Source of the DNA: a bacterium
GTDB taxonomy: Bacteria; Pseudomonadota; Alphaproteobacteria; Rs-D84; CACZYB01
Length of the DNA stretch: 64,000 bases
NCBI GenBank assembly: GCA_014803575.1
Contig: JAAVBO010000003.1
Location: forward strand, 87,165 to 151,164
Direction: 5' to 3'
The stretch's first letter is position 1, and each line of letters opens with the position of its first letter. Both the position numbers and the translations under genes were made by a program. The notes below the pieces were generated by a model. The model did not search any database and was not told the DNA's origin. It was given only the letters and a program-made list of their open reading frames with translations. Positions 23,590 through 47,330 of this stretch are shown in pieces.

Positions 23590-24072
23590 ATGTTAATAAG
23601 AAAAAATGATTCCGGACGTTCCATAGTTGAAATGCTTGGTGTCTTGGCTATTATGGGTGTTATCACTGTTATGGGTATTTCCGGTTATTCCCAAGCAATT
23701 GGAAAAATCAACAGAAATAAAGTTGTTGAAGATGTAACAAGAATCGTTCAAGAGGTTAGGGGACTTTATGCCGGTAAAACTGATGTTTATACAAAGGTTC
23801 CTGCTGGATCGGAAACTGATGATTTGTTACTTTCCATTGGATTTAGAAGATCATCTGATAAGCATCCGTTTGGTGGTGTTTATTACATATCTCCTGCGAC
23901 TGAGGAAGATAGCGGTGCAAAAAGATATTTCAATGTTAATATTACAGGTTTGGATAAACAGGATTGTTTCTATCTATGTACATCTAATTGGGAAGGAACA
24001 CACGAAGATTGTGATACTACTAAGGCTTGTGGTTCAGATAGTGACAATACTTTGGCTTTATCATTTGAATAA
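23590..24072 (+). CDS. Type IV pilin / pseudopilin-like protein
   Basis: Class III leader with a processing site G|RSIVE (Glu at +5), followed by the hydrophobic helix MLGVLAIMGVITVMGISGY. Strong RBS aaggagaagagaATG. Confidence 0.65.
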   Translation: MLIRKNDSGRSIVEMLGVLAIMGVITVMGISGYSQAIGKINRNKVVEDVTRIVQEVRGLYAGKTDVYTKVPAGSETDDLLLSIGFRRSSDKHPFGGVYYISPATEEDSGAKRYFNVNITGLDKQDCFYLCTSNWEGTHEDCDTTKACGSDSDNTLALSFE

Positions 24073-24135: not shown

Positions 24136-25503
24136 TCAGAATCGTTGGTTAAGTGTCATTTCTATGGCACTTTTTTCATATTCGTGTTGCCATACGTTGG
24201 AATTTTTATCTGTGTAGGTATAAGTAATGGTTGGCGAGAATCCCCAAAAACTTAATTTTCTGTTTGATAGAGATAATGAGTATTTTCTTGTAATATCTTT
24301 TTCTTTTATTTCTTCAAACTTTAAGTTTTTTACAAACCATCTTTCCTTATCATAATTTGTGTATAATATGGAAGGTTCAACATACATTGTGAATCCGTAT
24401 GGAAGTTCTATGCCAAAACCTATTGCATAGCTGTTTCTTGTATTGGAATAAATTCGTTCCTTTGTATTTTCAATTTCATATCCTGTTCTGAAAATTAAAT
24501 ATTTTGAGGCATCGAACATATATGATAATCTGGCATTAATTCCGCGAGTATCTCCATCCAAAATTTCGCCATAATCATCATATCTTGTTGGCATATAAGA
24601 AAGAGTTAAACCTCCGGATAGACTTCTTGTAAAATCATAACCGGTATTTATTTTTAATCCGACTGCGTAGCTGTAAGGTTGGTGGGCAAGCCATCTTCTG
24701 TATGCGGAAGGTCCAGCAAAAATTTCTCCATTTTTCCAAACATATTTTGGACCGAAATTATAACTTAAATAAAGATCGTCATATTCTTTTTTATTGTATG
24801 TATTTGAATAAAGCATAGCTTCATTTCTTAATCGCCATTTATCATTAATTAAAAATTCATAACTTCCGCCGAGGGAAACATTAAAACCTATGGCTTTTTC
24901 TTTATCTGATAATTGATTACAAAGTACGCCCCACATAGTCATAATACATTGTTCGCCACCGGTTGCGTTGTTGATATTATCATCCGGTGCGGCGCCGATA
25001 TTAAACCAGATATTCCAATTTTTGTTTTGTCGTGCGACATAAATATATTTTGCGATTTCTTGTTTTACAGGTGGAGGAAGAGTTTCGTCTGTTGCTGCTA
25101 ATCTTAAATGATAATCAGCTCTGTACCATGATTTTTGTAGCATATAAAGTTGTGCGAGTTTGAATCTTATTGATGATATATTTGGTTGGTAATCAAGGAT
25201 GAATCTTAAAATTTCAATTGCATCATCTATACGATTTTCAAGGGTTGCGATTTCAGAGAGAAGATATAGACGTTCTATTTCCAATTCCTTTACATTGAAA
25301 GGAGATTTTAGAAGTAGTGTTTTTGCACTGTCATATTCTTTATTTTTAATAAATTCTTTTGCTAAATTTATTATTTGTATGGGATTTAATTTGATAATTT
25401 TTTCAGAAGTTTCTGTATCGGGAATAGGAGTAATTTCCTCTGCCTTAATATCAAAAGATATTAAGGAAAAAATTACTCCTATGACTATAATAAATAACTT
25501 CAT
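24136..25503 (-). CDS. Outer-membrane TPR plus beta-barrel protein resembling Slam (surface lipoprotein assembly modulator, DUF560)
   Basis: Signal peptide, then an N-terminal TPR-like region, then a C-terminal region of alternating aromatic beta-strand patterns ending in a terminal Phe (LNQRF). The NWNIWFNIGAAPDDNINNA segment matches the DUF560 barrel start as I recall it. Confidence 0.55.
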   Translation of the reverse strand: MKLFIIVIGVIFSLISFDIKAEEITPIPDTETSEKIIKLNPIQIINLAKEFIKNKEYDSAKTLLLKSPFNVKELEIERLYLLSEIATLENRIDDAIEILRFILDYQPNISSIRFKLAQLYMLQKSWYRADYHLRLAATDETLPPPVKQEIAKYIYVARQNKNWNIWFNIGAAPDDNINNATGGEQCIMTMWGVLCNQLSDKEKAIGFNVSLGGSYEFLINDKWRLRNEAMLYSNTYNKKEYDDLYLSYNFGPKYVWKNGEIFAGPSAYRRWLAHQPYSYAVGLKINTGYDFTRSLSGGLTLSYMPTRYDDYGEILDGDTRGINARLSYMFDASKYLIFRTGYEIENTKERIYSNTRNSYAIGFGIELPYGFTMYVEPSILYTNYDKERWFVKNLKFEEIKEKDITRKYSLSLSNRKLSFWGFSPTITYTYTDKNSNVWQHEYEKSAIEMTLNQRF

Positions 25504-25625
25504 TTAATTATAATTAACGTTTTTTTGATACATATAATTTATATCTGAAATTTATGTATGTCAATAAAGTCTCAACATTTATTTCTCAATAAAATTAATC
25601 AAAAAAACGTCTCCCTTTTTTTTTG
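25504..25625 (-). promoter_or_regulatory. Intergenic module, copy 1 (inverted relative to copies 2 and 3), with TTGACA-N17-TAAATT oriented toward the Slam gene
   Basis: On the minus strand the -35 is at 25564-25559 and the -10 at 25541-25536; the Slam start codon is at 25503. The reverse complement of this region aligns with 27064-27184. Arm sequences are degenerate (aacgttttttt / aaaaaaacgtc). Confidence 0.5.
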
Positions 25626-27035
25626 TTACTTACGTTTTGCACCGAATATGATATCCCAGTAAGTTGCACCTTTCCATGTTTCTTTACCAGAATTATCGTA
25701 ATCAGTCCATCCCCAACCGCCAGAATATCTTCCAACTGCTTCAGAAGGATCCTTATCAGCACCATAATATGCAGTTAATAAAGTCTCTGAATCCGGATAC
25801 ATAGGATATATTGTACCGTCTTCATCTTCATGTATAAAATGTTCTTTTGTATAATAGTCGAACTTTTTACCATCAGCTGTATATTCTGATGAAATATCAT
25901 CACCTTCTTTTGTTACAGTAACATCATACCAGTTATTAAATTTGAAATTTGCTACTTCTTTCATTGTTGCACCCGGTGTGACAGTAAGAGATACAGTTCC
26001 ATCTAAATCCATATAAGCAAGATCTTGTTCGTTGCTTGTAAGATTATAGCTTTCATCCATAATGTTACCCAAAGCACGACCTTCAAATGTGAAATTATCA
26101 GTTATATTTTCAATTTTTCTTTTTTCATTTCCGCCAAAGAAAAATACGGTTGCACTTTCTTTATTTTTGTAATCATTTACAAAATTATCCTTCATCATAC
26201 CGAATTGAGCATAGGATAGTTCCATACTGTCACCGCCAAGGGTAAGTTCGTATGTGTGATTTCCTTTTTTCTTTTCTCCTTTAAGAAGACCGGTATTATC
26301 TTTTCTAAGGTCGGATAATTCAAATTCTAAATCCTTTACATTTATGCCGTTTGCATCTATTTTTATACCTTTCGCATTACCATTTTCATCAACAGTAAAT
26401 TGTATAACACTGTCTTCTTGTTCTATATTAGATGGGAATTTGAAATCTTTTGAAAGATCATATTTTACTGCTGTGAATTTATCTTTATTTTCTGTTATTG
26501 CAGTTTTTATATCTTCGGCTTTTTCAATAATAGAATCTATAATATTGTCAGCTTTTGCGATTTCGTTTGCAATTTCTTTACCAACAAAAATAGTTAATCC
26601 CTGTGTAATAGCTGTTTTGAAAATGGTTTCATCTTCTAACTTTTCTGTAATAGTGTTTAAGATTTCTTTATCTACATTTATCCAATTTGCATAAATTTGA
26701 ATAAGATTATATTTTTTTTCTGTTTCGCTTAGTCCTGTTGCTTTTGCGGATTTAGAAGTTGCATTTCTTGCATTTGAATAATTAGATGCAGAGGCAGTTA
26801 AAGATTCATTTACAGATACAATTTTATCATAATTTGATGTATCAATAGGAGCCCCAAGCTCTTTTTCTGCCATAGCAACAATTTCTTTTTTATTATCTGA
26901 TTGAACAGAGAATGAAGAAACTGTTGTAGTAGGCAAAGTTGTATTTGGAACGGAGTTTCCGCCACCGTTACCACCACCGCAAGCGGTAAGTATGGTTGAT
27001 AGAGCGATTAAGCTTATTTTTAAATTATTTTTCAT
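25626..27035 (-). CDS. Putative surface lipoprotein, paralog 1 (TbpB-like C-terminal barrel; candidate Slam substrate)
   Basis: Lipobox LTAC, a GGGNGGGNSVPNTTLP linker, and a C-terminal FKFNNWYDV motif. The protein ends in IIFGAKRK, matching the TbpB C-terminus (...VVFGAKRQ) as I recall it. Confidence 0.55.
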   Translation of the reverse strand: MKNNLKISLIALSTILTACGGGNGGGNSVPNTTLPTTTVSSFSVQSDNKKEIVAMAEKELGAPIDTSNYDKIVSVNESLTASASNYSNARNATSKSAKATGLSETEKKYNLIQIYANWINVDKEILNTITEKLEDETIFKTAITQGLTIFVGKEIANEIAKADNIIDSIIEKAEDIKTAITENKDKFTAVKYDLSKDFKFPSNIEQEDSVIQFTVDENGNAKGIKIDANGINVKDLEFELSDLRKDNTGLLKGEKKKGNHTYELTLGGDSMELSYAQFGMMKDNFVNDYKNKESATVFFFGGNEKRKIENITDNFTFEGRALGNIMDESYNLTSNEQDLAYMDLDGTVSLTVTPGATMKEVANFKFNNWYDVTVTKEGDDISSEYTADGKKFDYYTKEHFIHEDEDGTIYPMYPDSETLLTAYYGADKDPSEAVGRYSGGWGWTDYDNSGKETWKGATYWDIIFGAKRK

Positions 27036-27063
27036 ATTAATTTCCTTTCAGTTTTTTATATTA

Positions 27064-27184
27064 GTCAAAAAAAAGGTACGTTTAAATTGACCGATTTTAT
27101 TAAAAAATAAACATTAGGATTTTATTGACATACACGAAATTAGGATATAAATTATATATGTCAAAAAAAAACGTACCTTTTTTT
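27064..27184 (+). promoter_or_regulatory. Intergenic module, copy 2: 16-bp inverted-repeat arms flanking a TTGACA-N17-TAAATT promoter that currently points antisense
   Basis: The arms are aaaaaaaaggtacgttt (27067-27083) and aaaaaaaaacgtaccttttttt (27163-27184). The -35 is at 27125-27130 and the -10 at 27148-27153, both on the plus strand. Confidence 0.5.
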
Positions 27185-27226
27185 ATCACTTTATTACTGA
27201 ATGAAACTACTCCTTATTTGTTAAAG

Positions 27227-28738
27227 TTATTTACGTTTTGCTCCGAAGACTGATTCAAACATATATTCTGTTCCTTCAATCTCATCGCGGAGATGTAATC
27301 TTCCAACAACTTCTTCTAATTCATTCATATCACCATAATACTCATCTTCAATGAAGTGATCTCTCTGATTGAAATCTATTTCTTTAAATTTATTAAAATC
27401 TCCATATATGTCATCTCCCGTTAATGTAATTTGACCATTGTTATAGTTGACATCATAGAAATTATCAAATTTAAGATTTAAATTTTTATTTAGGGAATCA
27501 TCTTTGAATGAAACGGTTAAATCAGCATTTCCATTAAGTATGAGTGCATTTTTACCTTCGATACTAGCGGTACCAATAGCTTTTCCTGTAAATGATATTT
27601 CATTATTATCGTTTAATACATACACAAGCTCATCTTTGGATGCGATAAGTTTTTCTTTGTATCCGCCAAAGAAAACATCAGAAGTTTCTGTATGAGGTAA
27701 TTCAACATTATTATCAGGATTATTGGATAGTGGACGGTTTGCCGATAATATTGTTTTATATAATGATCCAAAGTCAGAGTATGATAGTCCAACGGATTTT
27801 CCCCCAAGGATTATTTTATATTGATAATTGATATCAACTCCATCATCTTTTATATCACTAGAATCATATTCATTATCATCACTAATTTTATTTGCAAAAT
27901 CAATTAATCCTGTGTCTTTATCATAAACATAATATTTATAAGATTCCGTTTGATTTTTTTCTCCTATAATAAAGCCGTTTTTATCTTCTTTGAAATCATT
28001 AATATCAAAATCTATTGTTAAGTCTGTATCAAATTCATCTGATGGATTATTACGTTCATTATGTTCATAATGCATTCCTGTGACTTTATTATCCTTCACT
28101 GTATACTTAAATATGTTACGAGTTGTTGCATATTGATCATCTTTATTATCGGATAATTCTACAGTTGCAAGAGAAAATGTTTCTAATGTAGCTTGTTTTT
28201 TAATATCCTCGACATCTCCTGATATATCACCAATAGTTTCAAAAGTTGATTTTATGTTGTCATCTGTTAACTTTTCTACTATATCGTTTTTGTTTATAAG
28301 TTTTAGGGCATCAATAAATTTTTGTTTGTTTTCCCTTAAAACTTCTTCTGATTGGTCAGCCAAATTTTCAAGGACATCTTTCAATTCGTCGACATAACTT
28401 AATTTTACTTGGGCTATGCGATATTTTTTTTCGGCATCAGTCAAATTTTGGGATGAAACTTTTGCATTTGAAGTTGCACTTCTGTTTGGATTGTTTTTAT
28501 GAATTGCTTCGTATTTAGAAGCTACTTCTTCTGTGTATTCGGCGACATCTATTTTACCAAGATGTCCTTCAACATAATCAATAATATCTGATTTATTATC
28601 TACACTTGTTTTCATAGCGGTTATAGTTTCTGCACGTGGTAAAGTTGTATTTGGAACGGAGTTTCCACTTCCACCACCACCGCAAGCAGTAAGTAAAGTT
28701 GATAGAGCAATTAAGCTTATTTTTAAATTGTTTTTCAT
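27227..28738 (-). CDS. Putative surface lipoprotein, paralog 2
   Basis: The true start is MKNNLKISLIALSTLLTAC at 28738; the ORF-track start at 28837 runs through the upstream module. The protein ends in SVFGAKRK and has a KFDNFYDV motif. Confidence 0.55.
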   Translation of the reverse strand: MKNNLKISLIALSTLLTACGGGGSGNSVPNTTLPRAETITAMKTSVDNKSDIIDYVEGHLGKIDVAEYTEEVASKYEAIHKNNPNRSATSNAKVSSQNLTDAEKKYRIAQVKLSYVDELKDVLENLADQSEEVLRENKQKFIDALKLINKNDIVEKLTDDNIKSTFETIGDISGDVEDIKKQATLETFSLATVELSDNKDDQYATTRNIFKYTVKDNKVTGMHYEHNERNNPSDEFDTDLTIDFDINDFKEDKNGFIIGEKNQTESYKYYVYDKDTGLIDFANKISDDNEYDSSDIKDDGVDINYQYKIILGGKSVGLSYSDFGSLYKTILSANRPLSNNPDNNVELPHTETSDVFFGGYKEKLIASKDELVYVLNDNNEISFTGKAIGTASIEGKNALILNGNADLTVSFKDDSLNKNLNLKFDNFYDVNYNNGQITLTGDDIYGDFNKFKEIDFNQRDHFIEDEYYGDMNELEEVVGRLHLRDEIEGTEYMFESVFGAKRK

Positions 28739-28766
28739 TTTGTTTCCTTTCAGTTTTTTTATATTA

Positions 28767-28886
28767 GTCAAAAAAAAGGAACGTTTAAATTGACCTATTG
28801 TATTGAAAATAAATATTAGGATTTTATTGACATACACGAATTTAGAATGTAAATTATATATGTCAAAAAAAAACGTTCCTTTTTTT
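28767..28886 (+). promoter_or_regulatory. Intergenic module, copy 3: arms with a compensatory T-to-A change and the same antisense-pointing promoter
   Basis: The arms are aaaaaaaaggaacgttt and aaaaaaaaacgttccttttttt (ggaacg/cgttcc, versus ggtacg/cgtacc in copy 2). The -35 is at 28827-28832 and the -10 at 28850-28855. About 90% identical to copy 2 over ~170 bp. Confidence 0.5.
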
Positions 28887-28900
28887 ATTACTGAATGAAA

Positions 28901-30001
28901 CTAGTCTCTTTTCAATCCAAATGCGGCGTTGAAGTCAATGATGGAAATTCCAGGTCTGTTTTCATCTTTGAAATCATTACCTGTATATTCTTCACCATCT
29001 CTCATAGCTTCTATGATTTCCATACCGCCACCGGCTTCAACAACTGTGTTTGTTAAATCATCATAATAGTAGTTAAGTGTAAAATTATTTAGTCCGCCGA
29101 GAGCATTTTTTTCTTCGCCGTTTTTAAATTTGAAAAGGTCATCTTCTCCTGTGAATTTTTCAAATTTTACATTAACATCAGATTCACCAAATTTGTCAGT
29201 AACAACTACATCATACCAATTATCAAAATTCATTGTTAAAGTAGATGTTGGGTTTGCTCCATTGTCAAAATGAAGTGTTGCTTTACCGTCAAGATTTATA
29301 TTACCTTCTTTGGAACCTTGATTTGCAATGTTTTCTTCGGCACTTACTCCTCCAATTGCTCTACCGGTAAAGTCAATAGATGCGATGTCTTTTTCAATTT
29401 TATCCGGAGAAATTTCTCTTTCTTTATATCCGCCGAACACACCTAATTGATATTCATCTAAGTCATCACTTTCTTCTTTTGGTATATACTTACCGTTTTC
29501 ATCAGTACCATATTCAATAGATTTACCATTTAGGCGGAAGAAGTCAAAATAACTTAAACCAAGTTCTTTTCCCATTGATTCAAAGGTTAGTTCTTGATAC
29601 ATCTCATGATCTCCTTCTGGACCATCATAGATAAATTTATTTTCATTATTTCTTTTAAATACTGTTTCTCCGTTTTCATCAGAAAAAGATACAATTTTTC
29701 CATTATCATCTACGTTGAATTTAAAACTCGAATTTTCACCTTCATCAAATACAGTAAATTTTATGTCGCTGATATCAGCATATTGTTTAGCACGTGATGT
29801 TGATGTAGCGGATCTTACGCTTTCGGGTTTTTCCTTTGTAAGGTCAATACGACTTTTCAAAGATGTTATTTGTCTGTTGGATGCTTCGACAGTAGTAGGC
29901 AAAGTTGTGTTTGGAACGGAGTTTCCGCCACCATTACCACCACCGCAAGCGGTAAGTAAAGTTGATAGAGCAATTAAGCTTATTTTCAAATTATTTTTCA
30001 T
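28901..30001 (-). CDS. Putative surface lipoprotein, paralog 3
   Basis: The same MKNNLKISLIALSTLLTACGGGNGGGNSVPNTTLP N-terminus, a C-terminal MNFDNWYDV motif, and an ending AAFGLKRD. Confidence 0.5.
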   Translation of the reverse strand: MKNNLKISLIALSTLLTACGGGNGGGNSVPNTTLPTTVEASNRQITSLKSRIDLTKEKPESVRSATSTSRAKQYADISDIKFTVFDEGENSSFKFNVDDNGKIVSFSDENGETVFKRNNENKFIYDGPEGDHEMYQELTFESMGKELGLSYFDFFRLNGKSIEYGTDENGKYIPKEESDDLDEYQLGVFGGYKEREISPDKIEKDIASIDFTGRAIGGVSAEENIANQGSKEGNINLDGKATLHFDNGANPTSTLTMNFDNWYDVVVTDKFGESDVNVKFEKFTGEDDLFKFKNGEEKNALGGLNNFTLNYYYDDLTNTVVEAGGGMEIIEAMRDGEEYTGNDFKDENRPGISIIDFNAAFGLKRD

Positions 30002-30047
30002 AGTAATTTCCTTTCATTAGTTTATTATTATTTACTTTGTGTTAAAT

Positions 30048-31607
30048 TTATTGACGTTTCGCACCGAAGACATATTCTAAACTTGTGTTTATTTTACCTT
30101 CCTTATCTTTATATTCTATAATTCCACCACCAACTGCTTCTGTTGGAGAGTGTGCATTTTCACCATAAAGATTTACAAAACTTGATTGATTTGTTGAATT
30201 ATTAAGCATATCAATAATCATTTGATTTTCTAAACTTCCTATATTATCGTAAAATTTAGAATCTTCTATTTTGTTATATCTTATATCATATCCTCCACTT
30301 ATAAAATGTCCATCTGGGGCAATTGTAGTATTTGGTGAATATACTACTTCTTCTTCATATTTTGGAGTAATATTCATACTAATTCCGTTGTCCCAATTAA
30401 CATTTAAAGATGTTGTTGTGTTCATATTTGAAAAATGAACATTTAAAGATGTATCTCCTTGTAAAAATTTATCTATTCCAGATACATTTAAATTACCGTA
30501 TGCTTTACCTTTAAATGTTACATCTCCTAATTCATAAGATTTACTTATATCATAGAATGGAAATAATAAAGCACTTTGATTTTTTTCATTAAATCTGTTT
30601 TGATTTGTATTATATCCAAGTGTTGCCAGATAATGGTTTGACGATTTATTATTATCAACTTGGATATAAGTAAAATCAGCGTATGATAATCCTACGGATG
30701 TTCCTCCTAAAATAATTTTGTAATTATTTTTATCATCAGATGTTTTTATTATTTTATTCCCATCTTCATCTATTATATCATCTTTGTTAAAAGTTATGGT
30801 TTTATTTGTTATATCAGAGTTAAATGACAAACTATATATATCTCCATTACTGTCAGTATTATATTTTAAAGTAAAACTTTCATCATCTCTTAATGGAGTA
30901 AACTGTAATTGATCTATACTTATGTCTTTATAATTATTTTCAATAAAATCAAGTCGTTTTGTATAGTATGAGGGATCAAATGCGTAAATAGTTGCATTTT
31001 TATTTAAATTTATAGTATCTACTATCATTTCAACACTATTTGAATACTTTATGAAATTATTCATGTCATCTTCTGTTATTATTTTTCCATATTTAGTTTC
31101 ATATAAATATTTAGTAACCCTATTTTGAAAATCAACCATTCCAAGAAAAGCTTCACTATAAATTGTATTAAAATAAACATAATTATAAAGAAATTCGTTG
31201 ATAAAATTTTCATCATTTTTTGATATTTCTTCTAATTGTTCTAATCCATTATCTTCTAATGCTATTTCGACATGTTTTCTAATATAGTTTATATTATCTA
31301 TTAATTTTTTAGTTATTGTATCTATTATTTCATCTTCTGATAATGAATTGTACTTATCATCTTTAATTAAAATATCATAAGTATTTTTATCCAAGAGTTC
31401 ATCGTGAACATTTTGGAACCATGTAGAATTTTTTACAGTTTGAAAAGCATTAGAATTTGATTTTATTGAAATCTTTGCTGAATTTGTATCAGAAATTGTC
31501 GGTAAATTTGTATTTGGAATAGAACTTCCGTCACCACTTCCACCACCACCGCAAGCAGTAAGTAGGGTTGATAGAGCAATTAGGCTTATTTTAAAATTGA
31601 TTCTCAT
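30048..31607 (-). CDS. Putative surface lipoprotein, paralog 4 (first gene of the array)
   Basis: MRINFKISLIALSTLLTACGGGGSGDGSSIPNTNLP N-terminus and an ending YVFGAKRQ. It lies 46 bp upstream of paralog 3. Confidence 0.5.
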   Translation of the reverse strand: MRINFKISLIALSTLLTACGGGGSGDGSSIPNTNLPTISDTNSAKISIKSNSNAFQTVKNSTWFQNVHDELLDKNTYDILIKDDKYNSLSEDEIIDTITKKLIDNINYIRKHVEIALEDNGLEQLEEISKNDENFINEFLYNYVYFNTIYSEAFLGMVDFQNRVTKYLYETKYGKIITEDDMNNFIKYSNSVEMIVDTINLNKNATIYAFDPSYYTKRLDFIENNYKDISIDQLQFTPLRDDESFTLKYNTDSNGDIYSLSFNSDITNKTITFNKDDIIDEDGNKIIKTSDDKNNYKIILGGTSVGLSYADFTYIQVDNNKSSNHYLATLGYNTNQNRFNEKNQSALLFPFYDISKSYELGDVTFKGKAYGNLNVSGIDKFLQGDTSLNVHFSNMNTTTSLNVNWDNGISMNITPKYEEEVVYSPNTTIAPDGHFISGGYDIRYNKIEDSKFYDNIGSLENQMIIDMLNNSTNQSSFVNLYGENAHSPTEAVGGGIIEYKDKEGKINTSLEYVFGAKRQ

Positions 31608-31640
31608 TTTTTTTACCTTTCATTAGTTTTTATTTGTTCA

Positions 31641-31856: not shown

Positions 31857-33116
31857 TTATTGATATCTTAATGCTTCGATTGGGTCCAGTTTGGTTGCCT
31901 TTATTGCAGGGAAAAGTCCGGAGGATATGCCTACAATAATTGCGACAGAAAAACTTATGATTACGGTTATTAATGATATAGGTACATTTTTATCTAAGAC
32001 TGCGCCTGCGATTTGTGACAGGGCTATACCTATAATCATACCTATCATACTTCCTATGAAAGATATAAGTATGGATTCCGTTAAAAATTGTCCCATAATG
32101 GAGCTGTTTTTTGCACCTATTGCCTTTCTAATACCTATTTCCCTTGTTCGTTCGGTGACGGAAACAAGCATCATATTCATAATACCTATACTTCCAACGA
32201 TAAGAGAAATTGAGGCTATGGAGGCAAGAAGGATTGAAAGGTAAGTTCCGACGGAGCGCATAGTTTCTTGGATTTCGGTCATATTATCAATACGAAAATC
32301 ATTTTCAGCGGTTGGTTTTAATCGTCTTGATTCACGAAGAGCATTTTCAATTAGTTTTGTTGCGCGTTCCATATTATTTTCGTTATCTACCTGTGCCATT
32401 ATGTAGTTTACTCGGTTAGGAATGTTTGTTCCCTGAACACGGCGACGATAGGTTGTTATCGGCATAAGGACTATATCATCTTGGTCCATACCGCCCATAC
32501 CTTGACCTTTGGATTTAAGGATACCCTTTACAATGAATGGAACATTTTTTATTCGCATAGTTTTTCCAAGTGGATTTTCGTCGTGGAAAAGTTCATCTGC
32601 GATAGTTTTTCCTATTACTATGTAAGAAGATGCTGCCTTTACATCGCGGTCGGTGAACATAGCCCCTTTTTCAATTTCCCAGTTGCCGGTGTACAGGTAG
32701 TCTGGGGTAGTTGCGACTATGGAGCCGGCGTAGTTTTCATTTCCGTAGACTAGCTGTCCTGCACCATTTACCATAGGAGAGACAGCTGATATGTGCTTTA
32801 TGTTTTTTATAACGTCGGCGTCATTGGTTTTTATTATAGTCATACCGGAACCCTTTACACCGGAAGTTGCGACAAATTCCGGACGAATGATTAGTAGGTT
32901 ACTTCCCATTCCGGCAAGACTTTCATTTATCATATTTGACACGGTTTGACCTGCGGCAACCATTATAACTACGGCACAAACTCCTATAATAATACCTAGG
33001 GTTGTAAGAAATGAGCGGAGTTTGTTTGCCTTTATTGAAATCCATGATTCACGGAATACTGCCTCTGCCATATGTGTTTTTTTGTTATCGGTTGCTATTT
33101 TTGTGTTGCAAGTCAT
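31857..33116 (-). CDS. ABC transporter permease, MacB/FtsX-type (large periplasmic domain plus a C-terminal FtsX 4-TM bundle)
   Basis: One N-terminal TM, a ~220-aa periplasmic region, then three C-terminal TMs ending ...KATKLDPIEALRYQ. Typical MacB/LolCE topology. Confidence 0.8.
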   Translation of the reverse strand: MTCNTKIATDNKKTHMAEAVFRESWISIKANKLRSFLTTLGIIIGVCAVVIMVAAGQTVSNMINESLAGMGSNLLIIRPEFVATSGVKGSGMTIIKTNDADVIKNIKHISAVSPMVNGAGQLVYGNENYAGSIVATTPDYLYTGNWEIEKGAMFTDRDVKAASSYIVIGKTIADELFHDENPLGKTMRIKNVPFIVKGILKSKGQGMGGMDQDDIVLMPITTYRRRVQGTNIPNRVNYIMAQVDNENNMERATKLIENALRESRRLKPTAENDFRIDNMTEIQETMRSVGTYLSILLASIASISLIVGSIGIMNMMLVSVTERTREIGIRKAIGAKNSSIMGQFLTESILISFIGSMIGMIIGIALSQIAGAVLDKNVPISLITVIISFSVAIIVGISSGLFPAIKATKLDPIEALRYQ

Positions 33117-33826
33117 TATCTTTTCCCCTTAAATTCAGAAACTTTACCATCGTAGTGAAGAACGCCGTCAAGTATGTAGATAAGGCGGTCGGCATAATTT
33201 GCAATATCCGGTTCGTGGGTGACAAGGACAATGGTTTTTCCTTCTTTATTTAAAGAAGTAAACAAGTCCATTATTTCAATGGAAGTTTTTGTATCCAAAT
33301 TTCCGGTTGGTTCGTCGGCAAGAATTAAAGTAGGTTCGTTGATTAGTGCTCTTGCAATTGCAACACGTTGTTGCATACCACCGGATATTTGATTTGGAAA
33401 TCGGTCGGTAAATTTTCCAAGTCCTACATGTTCCAGCATATTTTTTGCCTTTTCATGTTGGCAAGTAAGGTTGTATCCCGAATAAATCAGTGGAATACAA
33501 ACGTTATCAAGCAGAGTTCTTTTCATAAGAAGATTGAACCCTTGAAATACAAAGCCGATTTTTTTATTTCTTATTTCAGCAAGTTGGTCATCGTTCATAG
33601 ATGATACAATTTGCTCATCAATTTCATATATACCTGATGTTGGTTTATCAAGACAGCCTAGTGTATTCATAAGTGTGGATTTACCACTTCCCGATGGACC
33701 CATAATAGCAACGAATTCACCTTCGTTGATTGTGAAATTGATATCCTTTAATACCGGATATGAATTACCTCCATCCATAAAGTAGGTTTTATATAGATTT
33801 TTTACTTCTATGACTTTTTTTGCCAT
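33116..33826 (-). CDS. ABC transporter ATP-binding protein (MacB/LolD-type)
   Basis: Walker A GPSGSGKST, signature ISGGMQQRVAIARAL, Walker B LILADEPTGNLD, and H-loop VTHE. The start is probably MAKKVIEV at 33826. Confidence 0.9.
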   Translation of the reverse strand: MAKKVIEVKNLYKTYFMDGGNSYPVLKDINFTINEGEFVAIMGPSGSGKSTLMNTLGCLDKPTSGIYEIDEQIVSSMNDDQLAEIRNKKIGFVFQGFNLLMKRTLLDNVCIPLIYSGYNLTCQHEKAKNMLEHVGLGKFTDRFPNQISGGMQQRVAIARALINEPTLILADEPTGNLDTKTSIEIMDLFTSLNKEGKTIVLVTHEPDIANYADRLIYILDGVLHYDGKVSEFKGKR

Positions 33827-33836
33827 ATTGGTTTTC

Positions 33837-35066
33837 CTATCTGCGTCTTCCGCCACCAGGTCCGCCAACTCTTATTGCAGGAGTTGCTTTGGAGCTTTTT
33901 GCGGTTCCATTGTAGTTAAACTCCGAAATTACAAAGTCATTTTCGTTTAGTTCGTCGGAAATTATTTCTGTTATGCTTCCGTTTGTGATACCTTTTTTTA
34001 TTTTGATTGCATTTAGTGTTTTTGATTCATCATCGTAGGTATAAACGAAACCTTCACCGGCACCTAATCTTGAATTTTCCGGATAGATAACTTTATCTCG
34101 CAAAACGTCTTCCGGTTTGAATTGAAGGGTTATGTTATCAAGGATTTTTACATCGTTTTTTTCTTGTGTATTAATTTCAACGAATGCAGTCATTCCAGGG
34201 AGAAGTTTGTTATCCTTGTTATCAATTTTTATTATAACTGTGTAGATAACGACATTTTGTTCTGTTGTTGGGTTAAGGCGGATTTGGTCAACGTAACCTT
34301 TGAATGTTTCAAGTGGGAATGCGTCGACAGTAAAATCAACAGATTGTCCTTTTTTGATTGTTCCTATGTCGGCCTCGGAAATGCTTGCTTCTATTTGCAT
34401 TTTCTTTAAATCTTCGGCAATTGTAAATAATGTTGGAGCGGAGAATGATGAGGCTATGGTTTGACCTTCCTCGACATCTCTTGAAATAATGACACCTGAT
34501 ACAGGAGAGGTTATTCTTGTATAATCCATATTTCGCTTACTTCTTTCCAAATCGGAAGTTGCAGAGGTGTAGTCGGCTTTGGCAGTAGTGAGTTCTGTTT
34601 CTGCCTGATCAAGTTCAACCTTTGCTATGTAGCCGGCATTGTAGAGTTGTTCAATTCTTTCCTTATTCAATTTTGCGAGTTCGTATTTTGCCTTTGCTTG
34701 AGTTTGTCTTGCTTGAGAAGCGTTTACATCTTCTACGAACAAAGATTTATCAACCTCAGCAAGTAATTGACCGATTTTTACATTGTCATTATAGTCTGCG
34801 TAGATTTTATCGATAATGCCAGATACTTGGGCACCGACACTTACAACATTGACTGGATTGACTATGCCTGTTGCACTTACCTTTGATTTTACATCACCTT
34901 TTGTAATTTTAGAAAATTCAAAATTGTTTGGTTTTAATTTTAATTCAGAGGGAGTTGAAAACAAAATTTTTTTACCAATTAACAATATTACGCATATTAA
35001 AATTATGTAAAAAATTCTTTTTTTCCAGTTGGCTTTTTTTCCAGCTGTGTTATTTGTTGTTTCCAC
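33837..35066 (-). CDS. Periplasmic adaptor (membrane fusion protein, HlyD/MacA family)
   Basis: An N-terminal TM, coiled-coil hairpin regions and a beta-barrel/lipoyl pattern typical of MFPs. Confidence 0.75.
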   Translation of the reverse strand: METTNNTAGKKANWKKRIFYIILICVILLIGKKILFSTPSELKLKPNNFEFSKITKGDVKSKVSATGIVNPVNVVSVGAQVSGIIDKIYADYNDNVKIGQLLAEVDKSLFVEDVNASQARQTQAKAKYELAKLNKERIEQLYNAGYIAKVELDQAETELTTAKADYTSATSDLERSKRNMDYTRITSPVSGVIISRDVEEGQTIASSFSAPTLFTIAEDLKKMQIEASISEADIGTIKKGQSVDFTVDAFPLETFKGYVDQIRLNPTTEQNVVIYTVIIKIDNKDNKLLPGMTAFVEINTQEKNDVKILDNITLQFKPEDVLRDKVIYPENSRLGAGEGFVYTYDDESKTLNAIKIKKGITNGSITEIISDELNENDFVISEFNYNGTAKSSKATPAIRVGGPGGGRRR

Positions 35067-35083
35067 TTTTATCCCTCCTTTTG

Positions 35084-36460
35084 TTATTGTAATGAACCTA
35101 AGTTTTTAAGGTTTAAATCACCTGCGGCTTTAAGTAGTGCAATTTTTGCAGTATATAAATCATATTGTGCAGAAATTGATTGTTTTCTTGCTGAAACAAG
35201 TTTTGATTGTGCTTCCATAAGGCTGATGATGTCGCCTTTACCTGCTTGGTATGAACCGAGAGCAACCTGTTCATTTTCGTTTGCACTTTCAAGCATTTTT
35301 GTTGCAAGTTCAACGCTCTTTATACTTGTTTTGTAATCGTTGTATGCGTTGACTATGTTTAATTCTATGTCTTGTTTTAATTGTTGTAGAGCTTCTTTTT
35401 CGGCAGCATATGAATATTTTGCATTTCTAAGAGAGTAAGTGTGTTCGAATCCCGTGAATATAGGAAGAGAAACTCTTACACCTATTGCATCGCTTTCTCT
35501 ATCTCTTTTTATGCCACCAAAGTCAATGTCTTCGTCATACCAGTTTTTGTTTGCGAAACCGGAAATTGTTGGAAAGTATGCTGCGCTTGCCTGTCTTACC
35601 TTTGCATAAGAGGCCTTTACATCAGCAATTTTTGCCATTAAATCAGGACGTTTTTCCATTGCAATGTCTATTATTTCATCAACAGATTTTGAGATGAGTT
35701 CGTTGGTTGTATTTGCATAAGAAGTAACAAGTTTTATATCCATACTTGGTGGAAGACCAAGAAGTTTTGCAAGGTTTGCCTTTGCAAGACGAACGGCTTG
35801 CTCCTGTTTAACGGTATCAAGTTGACGTTGAATGTAGGTTGTTTCTGTTTGAAGAGTATCTGCCTTTGATGACATACCTAGTTCAAATTTTTTGAATGCA
35901 AGTTCAAATGATTTTTTACTTGCTTCCTCATCGGCCTTAACTGCAGCGAGTTCTTCAATAGAAGAAAGAGCGTTATAGTATGCAGAAATTACGTTATATG
36001 CAACGGTTTGCAATGTATTGTTGTATTGGAAATTCATAGAGTTCATAGTTTGGAAAGTTTGTTCAACCTGTGCTTCACGATTTCCGAAATCATATAATAA
36101 CCAATTTAAAGATAGACCGGCACTTAAATCCTTACCGTTTGTTTCAACCGGTGGTATACCTGTGTAATCTTCATTATTACTGTCTTGATATGTTGCGGTT
36201 GCATCGATTTGAGGATAGTATGATGCGTATGAACGTTTGTATGCGGTTGAGCCGACCTTTGTATTTAACCATGCTTGTCTTGTTTCAGGGTTATTGCACA
36301 TTGAAAGTTCAATAACATCTGCAAGATTAAGTTCATCGGTTTCAACATTTTTTGAAATGTTGCAAGATTTACTTATTTCAAATGTTGATTTTTCCAATGT
36401 TTCGGCATTTGCTATTGTTGATATAAATAAAGTTGATAGTAATAATATAATTTTTTTCAT
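35084..36460 (-). CDS. TolC-family outer-membrane efflux protein
   Basis: Signal peptide and the two repeated halves of the TolC/OEP fold with long helical segments. 458 aa. Confidence 0.8.
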   Translation of the reverse strand: MKKIILLLSTLFISTIANAETLEKSTFEISKSCNISKNVETDELNLADVIELSMCNNPETRQAWLNTKVGSTAYKRSYASYYPQIDATATYQDSNNEDYTGIPPVETNGKDLSAGLSLNWLLYDFGNREAQVEQTFQTMNSMNFQYNNTLQTVAYNVISAYYNALSSIEELAAVKADEEASKKSFELAFKKFELGMSSKADTLQTETTYIQRQLDTVKQEQAVRLAKANLAKLLGLPPSMDIKLVTSYANTTNELISKSVDEIIDIAMEKRPDLMAKIADVKASYAKVRQASAAYFPTISGFANKNWYDEDIDFGGIKRDRESDAIGVRVSLPIFTGFEHTYSLRNAKYSYAAEKEALQQLKQDIELNIVNAYNDYKTSIKSVELATKMLESANENEQVALGSYQAGKGDIISLMEAQSKLVSARKQSISAQYDLYTAKIALLKAAGDLNLKNLGSLQ

Positions 36461-36626: not shown

Positions 36627-37841
36627 TTATTTTTTCTTTACTGATTTTTTCTTTTCAATGATTGCTTTTTCTTTTAGTTCAGTAAATTTTTCACTGTTCT
36701 TTTTTACCATTGTGAATACTTGACCAACATAGATTTTGTTTGGATCTTTGATTTGTGATTTGTTTGCTTCAAAGATAACAACATAGTTTGTTCCTTTGCC
36801 GTATTCTTTTAGGGCTAAGTTCCATAGGCAGTCGCCTTTTTTAACAACAACCATAGAATTTTCGCCGTCGATAAGAACAGGTGTGAATTTGTATTCAACG
36901 CGTTTTGCAACTTTGCCTTTTGAATTTAACATATCGGCACGAACTGTTTGTTTTTCATCGGATAGTTCGTAAGTTGTGTCAACAGACCAGTTTCCATTTT
37001 TATCCGATGTTGTTGTAGCGATAAGTTTGTTGTTCATATAAAGGTTGATTTTTGTATTCTTTTTAGCTTTACCTTCTGTGTAGAAGTTGCCTTTTTCATT
37101 ATAATCAATCTTTTCAATACGAAGAGCACCTATGTTTTGTCCCTTTGGAGCTTTTAAAACTTTGGAGTTTTTATTGTCGCCCATAAGGACAGCAACATCT
37201 TCGTTTGATTTTTTAGATACGTGAAGAACTGCGGATTGTTTGCTTTTAATTTTTTCACCGTTGTCATTTAAAACATAAAGTGAAAGTTTTCTGTTTCCGA
37301 CAGGAAGAGCTTTCTTTGGTATAAATACCCATTGTCCGTTTTCATCGGCAGTTTCTGTTCCGATTTCGTGATCGTTGTCAAGGATGTGGACTATGTCACC
37401 GGCTTTTGCTTGACCTGCGATAACGGCTTCACCTTTTTCCATGCGGACTATGTCAAATGAAGGATAGATGATTTCATTTTTCTTTTCTTCTGATTTAGAG
37501 AAAAGTTTTGACCACCAGCTTTGTTTTGTTTCTTTTTTGGTTACTTGTTTTTCAACCTTTGCAGGTTCAAGTGTTGCAACATTTGCTTTGTCTTTGTTGA
37601 AAATAGATATAACCCATATCATAATTGCAATTATTATAACAAAGATTACAAGTGCGACTATGAATTTTTTCTGTTTATCAGACATTTTTGTTTCTTTTAC
37701 TTTTTTATATTTTGCTTTTACTTTTTCCTTAAAAGAAGTTTTTTGTTTTTGAGACTTTGTTGCAACTTCTTTTTTTTCTTCTGTTTTTGGTGCAGAAGTT
37801 TGTGTGTCAGTTGTGTTTAAAATAGGTTCTTTTTTTTCCAT
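36627..37841 (-). CDS. LysM-domain membrane protein with Ig-like repeats
   Basis: Lys/Glu-rich N-terminus, one TM helix, the repeated motifs DENGQWVF / DKNGNWSV, and a C-terminal LysM (VVKKGDCLWNLALKEYG...IYVGQVF). Confidence 0.55.
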   Translation of the reverse strand: MEKKEPILNTTDTQTSAPKTEEKKEVATKSQKQKTSFKEKVKAKYKKVKETKMSDKQKKFIVALVIFVIIIAIMIWVISIFNKDKANVATLEPAKVEKQVTKKETKQSWWSKLFSKSEEKKNEIIYPSFDIVRMEKGEAVIAGQAKAGDIVHILDNDHEIGTETADENGQWVFIPKKALPVGNRKLSLYVLNDNGEKIKSKQSAVLHVSKKSNEDVAVLMGDNKNSKVLKAPKGQNIGALRIEKIDYNEKGNFYTEGKAKKNTKINLYMNNKLIATTTSDKNGNWSVDTTYELSDEKQTVRADMLNSKGKVAKRVEYKFTPVLIDGENSMVVVKKGDCLWNLALKEYGKGTNYVVIFEANKSQIKDPNKIYVGQVFTMVKKNSEKFTELKEKAIIEKKKSVKKK

Positions 37842-45968: not shown

Positions 45969-47330
45969 TTATTCATCCATTAATTTTTCTAATTCTCTAA
46001 TATCTCCTAGAAAGGGAATTGCTCCAAATCTACCTTTTAAATAACCGGATTCATAATCATAATTATTTCTTATATCTTTGAATGATGATAATGGATAAAC
46101 TGTTGATACTCCAGAAATATCTTTTTCTATAAACCAAATTTCATCCCGTCTTAATATATCACTTTTTAATAAATTAACATCATGGGTTGTACATATAAGT
46201 TGAGCTCCACCTTTGTTTATCTTTGGATTATTAAAAGCTTGAACCAATCTTTTAACAAGAATAGGATGTAGAGATCTTTCTATTTCATCACAAATAAATA
46301 TTCCACCATTTATAAAAGCAGGATAGAACATAATTATTTTACTTAAAAAAGCTAATGTACCGTCACTTTCTTGATTATTACTTAAAGGATATTCATTACC
46401 ATCTTTACCAATATGATAGTATTTTAACTGATAATCATATTTTGGAGGTTCAAAATTTTCTATTTGCACACTTTTAAATTTTGCAGTTATTTTTTTATTA
46501 AATATATCAAATAATTCCTTATTAAGAGATTGTGTTTCTTCATCAATTTTAATTTGTTCTATTTCAAATCTAGAAATACCTAAATCAATAGAATTAAGCC
46601 ATTGACTAATTTTATTAATTTCTCGCTTATTATTATATAATTCTACTAATCTATTATCAGGAATTTGAAATTCATTACAGAAGATAAAACATTTATTAAA
46701 AAACTTATGTATTCTTGTATAAGGAATTATATTTCTTTTTGTTAATAGTTCTAAGACTAAAACATCTTGTCTTTTAGATATAGTATCCTTAATATAATCT
46801 TTATCATAATTAGAGATATCACTGTCCTCATAAACTATATTTCCATTTTCTCTATTGTATAGTATTTTATTATTAGATGTTAAAGTTTCTGTTTTTATAA
46901 TTTGTTTGTTAAATATTAATTTATATATTATAATTTTCTTATCTAAGAAAAACTCAAATTCGAGAAGAGAATCTTTAGATTTACTTTCTTCATCAAGGAT
47001 GAAAGGAACATATGCAGATAATTTTGATAAATTTTTTTCTGAATTATTTAAAAATTGTTTCATTTTTAAAAATAATGATAATAATTTAGATTTACCAGAA
47101 GCATTTGCTCCATAAAAAATAGAAACAGGTAATACTTTATCTTCATCTTCTTTTGTTTCTATTAAATTCCAAAATTCTTTTTGTGAAGAGAAACGAGTTT
47201 CTTCAGAAAATAAAATATGATTTTCATCTTTGAAAGAAAAATGGTTAGAAAAAGATATTCTAATTATATTAGATCTTTCTTTTTTCATAGTATATCTCCG
47301 AATTTTAGTTAACTGATATTTATAATACAT
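45969..47330 (-). CDS. AAA_21-type ATPase (AbiLi / RloC-like abortive-infection ATPase)
   Basis: Walker A GANASGKSK, ICDEIERSLHP (Walker B / D-loop) and LICTTHDVNLL (H-loop). 453 aa. It lies 2 bp upstream of the RloB-like gene. Confidence 0.65.
   Translation of the reverse strand: MYYKYQLTKIRRYTMKKERSNIIRISFSNHFSFKDENHILFSEETRFSSQKEFWNLIETKEDEDKVLPVSIFYGANASGKSKLLSLFLKMKQFLNNSEKNLSKLSAYVPFILDEESKSKDSLLEFEFFLDKKIIIYKLIFNKQIIKTETLTSNNKILYNRENGNIVYEDSDISNYDKDYIKDTISKRQDVLVLELLTKRNIIPYTRIHKFFNKCFIFCNEFQIPDNRLVELYNNKREINKISQWLNSIDLGISRFEIEQIKIDEETQSLNKELFDIFNKKITAKFKSVQIENFEPPKYDYQLKYYHIGKDGNEYPLSNNQESDGTLAFLSKIIMFYPAFINGGIFICDEIERSLHPILVKRLVQAFNNPKINKGGAQLICTTHDVNLLKSDILRRDEIWFIEKDISGVSTVYPLSSFKDIRNNYDYESGYLKGRFGAIPFLGDIRELEKLMDE

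Follow-up and report, generated by a model that had tools for sequence, protein, structure and literature searches.

A 64,000-nucleotide (nt) stretch of contig JAAVBO010000003.1 (the window), from an uncultured gut alphaproteobacterium of the Rs-D84 lineage, contains five intact open reading frames (ORFs) in a row on the minus strand (24136-31607). This locus probably encodes a type 11 secretion system (T11SS, or Slam system) with four lipoprotein cargo genes (Table 1). The Slam gene lies at the downstream end of the row; the lipoprotein genes upstream of it are referred to as A to D. We observed that one product belongs to the Slam family, that the lipoproteins have the predicted fold of known Slam cargo, that the two kinds of gene are linked in other genomes, and that the lipoprotein genes are hypervariable between strains, with a breakpoint in a 5' cassette that they share. 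The locus belongs to a kind of surface-display system that is already known, of which it is a new and unannotated member with unusual variability.

A Pfam scan of the 455-amino-acid (aa) protein returned a match to PF04575 (SlipAM, DUF560) in which residues 163-455 aligned with positions 1-288 of the 288-position model, with a score of 125.6 bits (cut-off 22) and an E-value of 3.7e-36. This result indicated that the protein is a full-length member of the DUF560/SlipAM family, as had been proposed in an earlier annotation made from the DNA letters without database searches (the sequence-only reading). That annotation had also described a signal peptide, an N-terminal tetratricopeptide repeat (TPR) region and a barrel ending in Phe. 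The signal-peptide-like N-terminus MKLFIIVIGVIFSLISFDIKAEE, read as MKLFIIVIGVIFSLISFDIKA followed by EE, and the C-terminus ...TLNQRF, an aromatic end typical of outer membrane barrels, were both found. Evidence for the TPR region was weak: at residues ~85-125, PF24575 (TPR_Slam) scored 21.8 bits (cut-off 35.2) and TPR_19 scored 18.9 bits (cut-off 25), and NCBIfam TPR families matched the protein weakly. A sequence search found no solved structure related to the protein.

The sequence-only reading had placed four lipoprotein genes, each with a lipobox, upstream of the Slam gene on the same strand. All four products (4/4) begin with MKNNLKISLIALSTLLTAC followed by GGG, or a close variant, corresponding to a lipobox (LTAC) and a Gly-rich tether. 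The lipidated residue predicted from this motif, Cys19, showed no variation in two alignments (A1 and A8) and conservation of at least 90% in two others (A2 and A6). Several details of the annotation had to be corrected. The near-identical N-terminus spans ~35 residues rather than the first ~45, with D less similar than A, B and C, and the GC content of the window is 29.9% rather than ~28%. The motif given as (L/M)xFDNWYDV is recognisable in A (FKFNNWYDV), B (LKFDNFYDV) and C (MNFDNWYDV) but degenerate in D (VNWDNGISM), and the terminal motif (V/A)FG(A/L)KR(K/Q/D) holds for B, C and D but not for A, which ends IFGAKRK. The proposed match of these endings to the last strand of TbpB was borne out by deposited TbpB chains, which end ...ATVVFGAKRQQPVQ preceded by GGFYGPKAEELGG / GGFYGPKAEELGGWF; the family consensus at the last strands is YYGDxxxPxEAVG…FGAKR, and D ends EYVFGAKRQ. 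The last two strands of the lipoproteins therefore match TbpB at the motif level, whereas global sequence models do not.

The paralogs are essentially unrelated in their middle regions. By contrast, the beta-domains of all six pairs were detected by BLASTP (E 1e-14 to 1e-3, 24-33% identity); the beta-domain of A matched those of B and C at E 1.4e-14 and E 1.4e-9, respectively. This similarity goes far beyond chance and indicates that the beta-domains are mutually homologous. Lipoprotein C lacks the helical N-domain, seen as a deletion across columns ~60-236 of alignment A1. Pfam and NCBIfam scans of the four proteins gave noise, with no match to TbpB_B_D (PF01298) or the fHbp-type Lipoprotein C domain at E up to 1, so that the HMM (hidden Markov model) link expected by the sequence-only reading failed for all four lipoproteins and for 106 relatives: a Pfam scan seeking a bridging member found TbpB_B_D in 0/106 family representatives at E up to 0.01. 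Family profiles (full-length A2, beta-domain A3 and the 106-sequence A6) compared with all PDB sequences retrieved no TbpB-type chain. Aligning the beta-domain profile with meningococcal fHbp using hhalign was uninformative, at a probability of 0.1 with a single-sequence template and an approximate fHbp sequence. The likeness of these lipoproteins to known cargo is detectable only by structure and short motifs.

Structure prediction provided this link. A template-free AlphaFold2 model of lipoprotein A, built on a 27-sequence alignment, was confident (predicted local distance difference test, pLDDT, 83.1; predicted template modelling score, pTM, 0.76). It showed a disordered tether (residues 1-36), eight helices (49-197) and an all-beta region (210-468); we accordingly divided the protein into an N-domain (~49-197), a handle (~210-266) and a beta-barrel (~276-468). 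When this model was compared with the PDB using Foldseek, TbpB, the Slam-dependent PmSLP, fHbp and LbpB ranked top, at marginal E-values (1e-3 to 3e-2). In a separate structural comparison, hemophilins, NHBA, HpuA, fHbp, PmSLP-1 and LbpB were among the matches. The soluble-cargo matches covered both handle and barrel (171-197 residues). The integral 8-strand barrels OmpW, PagL and NspA also matched, over the barrel alone without the handle (~105-130 residues). The model of lipoprotein D had an overall pLDDT of 57.9, with 70-92 in the beta region and a poor helical domain. In the models of A and D a single beta lobe follows the helical domain, and in C no domain precedes it; the folds of B and C were tied to those of A and D because their beta-domains are related by sequence. 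The handle and barrel anticipated by the sequence-only reading were thus predicted for all four proteins, by modelling for A and D and by sequence for B and C. According to these predictions, the lipoproteins carry a C-terminal handle and 8-stranded beta-barrel of the TbpB C-lobe type, and are single-lobe proteins with a variable, mostly α-helical N-domain rather than bilobed TbpB orthologues.

Exact copies of the proteins were found on metagenome contigs, and named relatives are listed as 'MAG: Alphaproteobacteria bacterium' (MAG, metagenome-assembled genome). Using the Slam protein as a query over species-representative genomes, we recovered 22 loci, all from gut MAGs. Several are named Candidatus Enterousia, and one (L011, JBKSMR01) has been described as an Enterousia MAG from the order Rs-D84. 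A beta-domain HMM showed that a family lipoprotein ends just upstream of Slam in 14/22 loci and within 2.5 kb in two more. The pairing was also recovered in the reverse direction: starting from a distant lipoprotein (P0007) found by sequence alone, three contigs proved to carry a SlipAM gene at a distance of 0.9 kb. In most related species Slam is accompanied by one lipoprotein copy, and in this comparison the three- to four-gene array is specific to the lineage of the window. The pair behaves as a self-contained two-gene module in changing chromosomal contexts. In two of the P0007 contigs (L028 and L029, upstream of 6001), the same block of lipoprotein, 170-aa ORF and Slam has different upstream flanks, rpsD/rnc/lepB in one and thyX/OmpA/pgk in the other; this lipoprotein appears to sit at a rearrangement boundary.

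Three pairs were found in independent MAGs labelled Elusimicrobia, Ca. Avelusimicrobium and Elusimicrobiales (L018, 5653-8402; L022, 8552-11278; L024, 8552-11263). Their Slam proteins are 45-47% identical to that of the window, and the lipoprotein, directly upstream of Slam, ends ..AAYGMKKQ or ..AAYGMQKQ. The KdsD gene located 8 kb from the L022 pair shares 80-91% identity with numerous Avelusimicrobium/Elusimicrobiaceae proteins, encoded on contigs as long as 1.09 Mb, which indicated that this contig is genuinely Elusimicrobiaceae. Since T11SS has been described as proteobacterial, these copies suggest cross-phylum transfer in the gut.

Slams without a family lipoprotein were also present in related MAGs. 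In L010 (8337-11329), from a MAG that also contains the Slam of L006, the neighbour is a 408-aa secreted protein ending ..GFGCK; in L012 (6813-11302) it is a Cys-rich protein of 994 aa; and in L009 (4599-11362) it is a 1496-aa protein on the opposite strand, ending ..MLKFRFNF. These unannotated neighbours may be other cargo types. The size of the lipoprotein family was estimated with a HMMER scan of 1.84 billion representative sequences, which yielded 544 clusters at E ≤ 1e-3 and 354 at E ≤ 1e-10. Among the matches listed, the domain was at or near the C-terminus in 150/150 family clusters, and nearly all of the members sampled were metagenomic proteins without a name. In public data, a D-like representative (P0024, 518 aa) forms a separate cluster.

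Comparison of the window with a sister strain (L002) revealed that variation is concentrated in the lipoproteins. The flanking genes and Slam showed 99-100% protein identity, with nonsynonymous divergence (dN) of 0-0.003 and synonymous divergence (dS) of 0.018-0.039; the Slam protein itself is 100% identical. Lipoprotein C was 88.6% identical (dN 0.070, dS 0.154), lipoprotein B 89.5% (dN 0.050, dS 0.093) and lipoprotein A 97.7% (dN 0.011, dS 0.046), with dN/dS of 0.24-0.54, below 1. Substitutions clustered at residues ~89-121 of C and ~127-190 of B, in the N-terminal and handle parts and not in the barrel. Because dS and dN are both raised and the changes are clustered, the pattern fits imported mosaic segments, with relaxed or diversifying selection.

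Gene content also differed: L002 has three lipoprotein genes where the window has four, and gene D is absent from it. The L002 sequence matches the region upstream of D up to ~25 nt from the ATG, where it passes into gene C. The switch at this position places the breakpoint within a 5' cassette shared by the four genes (an RBS-proximal repeat; RBS, ribosome-binding site). This cassette is 134 nt long. Relative to the A copy, identity is 93% for the C copy and, in ungapped register, 65% for B and 64% for D. Over the first 105 nt the copies are almost the same, synonymous sites included, while the remainder of the proteins is ~25-30% identical, which indicated concerted evolution of the cassette. 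Together, these comparisons indicate that the array varies between strains and that recombination within the common cassette has added or removed a gene.

Table 1. Coordinates of the genes and repeated elements at the Slam locus, given as positions in the window
Feature	Position	Strand	Description
Slam / type 11 secretion outer-membrane protein	24136..25503	-	455 aa; DUF560 barrel (predicted) with C-terminal Phe, preceded by signal peptide and putative TPR-like N-domain
Lipoprotein A	25626..27035	-	469 aa; lipobox, Gly tether, 8-helix N-domain, handle, beta-barrel (predicted); ends IFGAKRK
Lipoprotein B	27227..28738	-	503 aa from ATG; predicted architecture as A; ends VFGAKRK
Lipoprotein C	28901..30001	-	366 aa; tether, handle and barrel only (predicted); ends AFGLKRD
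Lipoprotein D	30048..31607	-	519 aa; most divergent, largest helical N-domain (predicted); ends VFGAKRQ
Shared 5' cassette, gene A copy	26926..27059	.	RBS, signal peptide, lipobox and tether; direct-repeat family D1
Shared 5' cassette, other copies	28629-28762 (B), 29892-30025 (C), 31498-31631 (D)		direct-repeat family D1
Nested-hairpin intergenic element, upstream of A	27064..27188	-	~117-125 nt
Nested-hairpin element, second copy, upstream of B	28767-28890	-	
Nested-hairpin element, degenerate variant, upstream of Slam	25513-25614	-	

The start of lipoprotein B was taken as the ATG at 28738, although the mechanical ORF list runs on to a GTG at 28837; the RBS and N-terminus then match those of the paralogs, and public gene calls use this ATG (503 aa on public contig L001). 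Genes C and D are probably co-transcribed, as they are separated by 46 nt.

The array also contains a nested-hairpin intergenic element. Its copies share an 87-nt repeat that is 93% identical, with an inner palindrome (TTGACATA…TATGTCAA) that occurs, within the window, only in the array, and an outer perfect 16-bp inverted repeat that shows a compensatory difference between the two copies (GGTACG/CGTACC versus GGAACG/CGTTCC). RNA folding gave z-scores of -5.1 and -6.6 for the A and B copies and -3.75 for the degenerate copy upstream of Slam. No further copies were found elsewhere in the window, and a dispersed miniature inverted-repeat transposable element was rejected since the arms are restricted to the array. 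The hairpin could act as a promoter/operator, a terminator, or an element for mRNA processing or stabilisation. Homopolymer tracts in three intergenic segments (25545-25625, 27036-27226 and 28739-28900) differed by 1 nt between strains, including A9 versus A8 upstream of Slam and A7 versus A8 near the RBS of lipoprotein B. Phase variation via these tracts is unsupported, as 1-nt differences amount to normal strain or assembly variation.

Other genes surround the locus. A MacAB-TolC-type tripartite efflux operon (31857-36460, minus strand) adjoins the array upstream on the same strand; it comprises an OEP outer-membrane factor, a membrane-fusion protein, an ATP-binding cassette (ABC) ATPase and a MacB/FtsX permease, and no functional tie to the lipoproteins is evident. 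Just upstream of the operon, a 404-aa protein (36627-37841, minus strand) has Big_13 and Big_6 bacterial immunoglobulin-like domains together with LysM, and is likely another envelope or surface protein. A 453-aa AAA_21 protein (an AbiEii-like ATPase; 45969-47330, minus strand, E 7e-24) may be defence-related. Downstream of the array are a pilin-like ORF, UvrC and PgsA. This 160-aa type IV pilin-like ORF (23590-24072, plus strand) is convergent with Slam, has the N-terminus GRSIVEMLGVLAIMGVI, and matched N_methyl and PilS weakly. It is 100% conserved in close strains and present in close relatives only (L001-L006). It was rejected as a conserved third component of the system because it is confined to these relatives and the ~170-aa ORFs beside other Slams are non-homologous.

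Several explanations other than Slam-dependent display of strain-variable surface proteins were considered. The lipoproteins could be nutrient-capture co-receptors or hemophore-like proteins in the manner of TbpB, LbpB, HpuA or hemophilin, passing metal, haem or a host protein to a TonB-dependent receptor. The closest structural matches are indeed TbpB, hemophilins and HpuA, and the Elusimicrobia pair of L022 lies between a Cu/Zn efflux transporter and a cation diffusion facilitator (CDF) transporter. We nevertheless regard this as unlikely. The locus gene tables contain no TonB-dependent receptor or TonB gene, and no such receptor was found among the ten window ORFs scanned (all those of at least 450 aa not otherwise identified), eight of which match families such as PolA, α-amylase-family, Tgt and HolA while two match nothing. 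None was found beside the pair in ten related loci, where the flanks include ParC, NrdD, PNPase, MetRS, DnaK and LicD. A TonB-dependent receptor partner was therefore rejected, since the large neighbours in related loci are housekeeping genes and none was found among the window ORFs scanned. In addition, the predicted single lobe with its helical N-domain is unlike the ligand-binding N-lobe of TbpB, and four divergent paralogs with strain hypervariability better suit an antigen or adhesin than a conserved ligand site.

It is very improbable that the adjacency is incidental and that the products work independently of Slam, either as ordinary outer-membrane lipoproteins facing the periplasm or as 8-strand barrels inserted in the membrane. 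The pairing is kept in at least 14 species-level genomes with differing flanks and holds from the lipoprotein side, TbpB-like terminal strands are present, and the matches to soluble cargo extend over the handle as well as the barrel, unlike those to membrane barrels. We give equally little credence to the view that only one lipoprotein serves as functional cargo, the rest being redundant copies or decaying ones that have no role of their own. Copy number does differ between strains (three in L002, four here) and a single copy is usual in related species. However, none of the four ORFs is disrupted, each retains a lipobox, an RBS and conserved barrel motifs, L002 keeps orthologues of A, B and C at dN/dS below 1, and D-like P0024 forms its own public cluster.

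Other points weigh against Slam-dependent display of diversified cargo as well. No sequence model ties the lipoproteins to known cargo; the fold evidence consists of predictions, that for the N-domain of D being of low confidence; and the profile scores argue weakly for an N-terminal TPR domain in Slam. The 14-strand barrel of Slam is an expectation, and the surface location of the lipoproteins is putative. Finally, the raised dS means that recombination could explain the divergence without positive selection.

Considering these data, we propose the following model for Slam-dependent display at this locus. Published work describes export by Sec, lipidation by Lgt/Lsp/Lnt, delivery by Lol and Skp, a C-terminal specificity motif, passage through the Slam channel and flipping of the anchor (PMC9090332), and T11SS cargo made of an effector, a pedestal and an 8-strand barrel, including alpha-helical effectors (PMC12282271). 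Each lipoprotein would be exported by Sec, lipidated at Cys19 and transported by Lol to the outer membrane. The Slam barrel would recognise the C-terminal handle and barrel module, probably via the last strands YYGDxxxPxEAVG ... FGAKR, and would move the protein to the cell surface, where the lipid anchor and a Gly/Pro/Thr-rich tether of ~15-20 residues would hold it. The membrane-distal N-domain, a helical domain in A, B and D that C lacks, would be the variable, exposed 'effector' part. One Slam would thus serve four single-lobe cargo proteins, each showing a different N-terminal domain on a flexible tether. The four genes would have arisen by duplication while keeping a homogenised 5' cassette, which may serve as a recombination substrate for gene gain or loss, and probably for mosaic exchange, so that surface proteins would differ between strains of this gut bacterium, whose lineage probably has reduced genomes. 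From this combination of features we infer that surface display depends on Slam, which signal is recognised and what the lipoproteins do. Most likely they adhere to host or partner factors, or evade them, and do not take part in TonB-coupled nutrient capture; a TbpB-style nutrient receptor is disfavoured because no TonB-dependent receptor lies nearby and the pair forms a self-contained module.

Among the closest known counterparts is the Slam1-Slam2 system of Neisseria and Moraxella with TbpB, LbpB, fHbp and HpuA (PMC5449769, PMC9090332). Shared features are a DUF560 gene beside lipoprotein cargo; cargo with a lipobox, a flexible tether and a C-terminal handle and 8-strand barrel (predicted here); last strands resembling those of TbpB (FYG..AEE.GG ... 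VFGAKRQ); and antigenic diversity of the cargo between strains. Unlike these systems, the cargo described here is single-lobe with an alpha-helical N-domain, fails TbpB_B_D, has no TonB-dependent receptor partner that we could find, and is encoded by four tandem paralogs with a homogenised 5' cassette in an uncultured low-GC gut alphaproteobacterium. With respect to TbpB and LbpB proper, one handle and barrel lobe is predicted instead of two, and no TbpA/LbpA-type partner was found in the loci scanned. In Pasteurella multocida, a related known system comprises the PM1515 Slam, PmSLP (PM1514) and neighbouring lipoproteins (PMC5449769; PDB 9b3e, 9b3h), but PmSLP has ~215 aa and no helical effector domain, and its ligand is complement factor I. 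Pls-like T11SS cargo (Grossman et al. 2025, PMC12282271) is similar in combining a variable helical effector, a beta pedestal or handle and an 8-strand barrel as putative targeting domain. That cargo was found by BLAST or Pfam likeness to known barrels, whereas the lipoproteins here are invisible to Pfam and have no detectable HMM likeness; none of its EEARKA-type repeats were seen in them. Hemophilin/HrpC-type cargo (PDB 6om5, 7re4, 8gm3) is mostly soluble, binds haem and is linked to TonB-dependent receptors, in contrast to the proteins described here, which have a predicted lipid anchor, an additional helical domain and no such receptor in their vicinity. Earlier publications report Slam clusters that contain multiple lipoprotein genes (PMC5449769), and also Slams from outside Neisseria and Pasteurellaceae (PMC5449769; PMC12282271). 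The repertoire, called previously undescribed in the sequence-only reading, is therefore new as a protein family and for this lineage, but not as a kind of system.

Censuses of Slam/T11SS cargo rely on Pfam TbpB_B_D or on BLAST to known cargo (PMC8406197, PMC12282271). Since the lipoprotein family escapes both, the cargo repertoire and the taxonomic reach of T11SS have been underestimated: although the system is regarded as proteobacterial, the pair occurs in three Elusimicrobia MAGs. The interest of the family lies in its being large, invisible to standard models and present in reduced-genome gut Alphaproteobacteria and Elusimicrobiaceae, with gain and loss bounded by a cassette, and the strain comparison offers a concrete case of a gene gained or lost via recombination in that cassette. 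Genomes of the Enterousia/Rs-D84 lineage are <1 Mb and lack the tricarboxylic acid (TCA) cycle, respiration and standard transporters (PMC12306168), so a 7.5-kb hypervariable lipoprotein locus would be a large investment for the likely host. It is an obvious candidate for the means by which these uncultured gut bacteria adhere to a host or to partners, or evade them. Tentatively, we put forward a broader scenario as possible: a Pfam-invisible T11SS cargo family of at least 544 clusters at 50% identity may move with Slam between phyla (Rs-D84/Enterousia-like Alphaproteobacteria and Elusimicrobiaceae) and, expanded here into a cassette-like array with a homogenised 5' module and clustered mosaic changes in the exposed domain, may give rise to strain-specific surface coats, a recombination-driven system of variable antigens or adhesins, in bacteria that probably have minimal genomes and likely depend on a partner or host.

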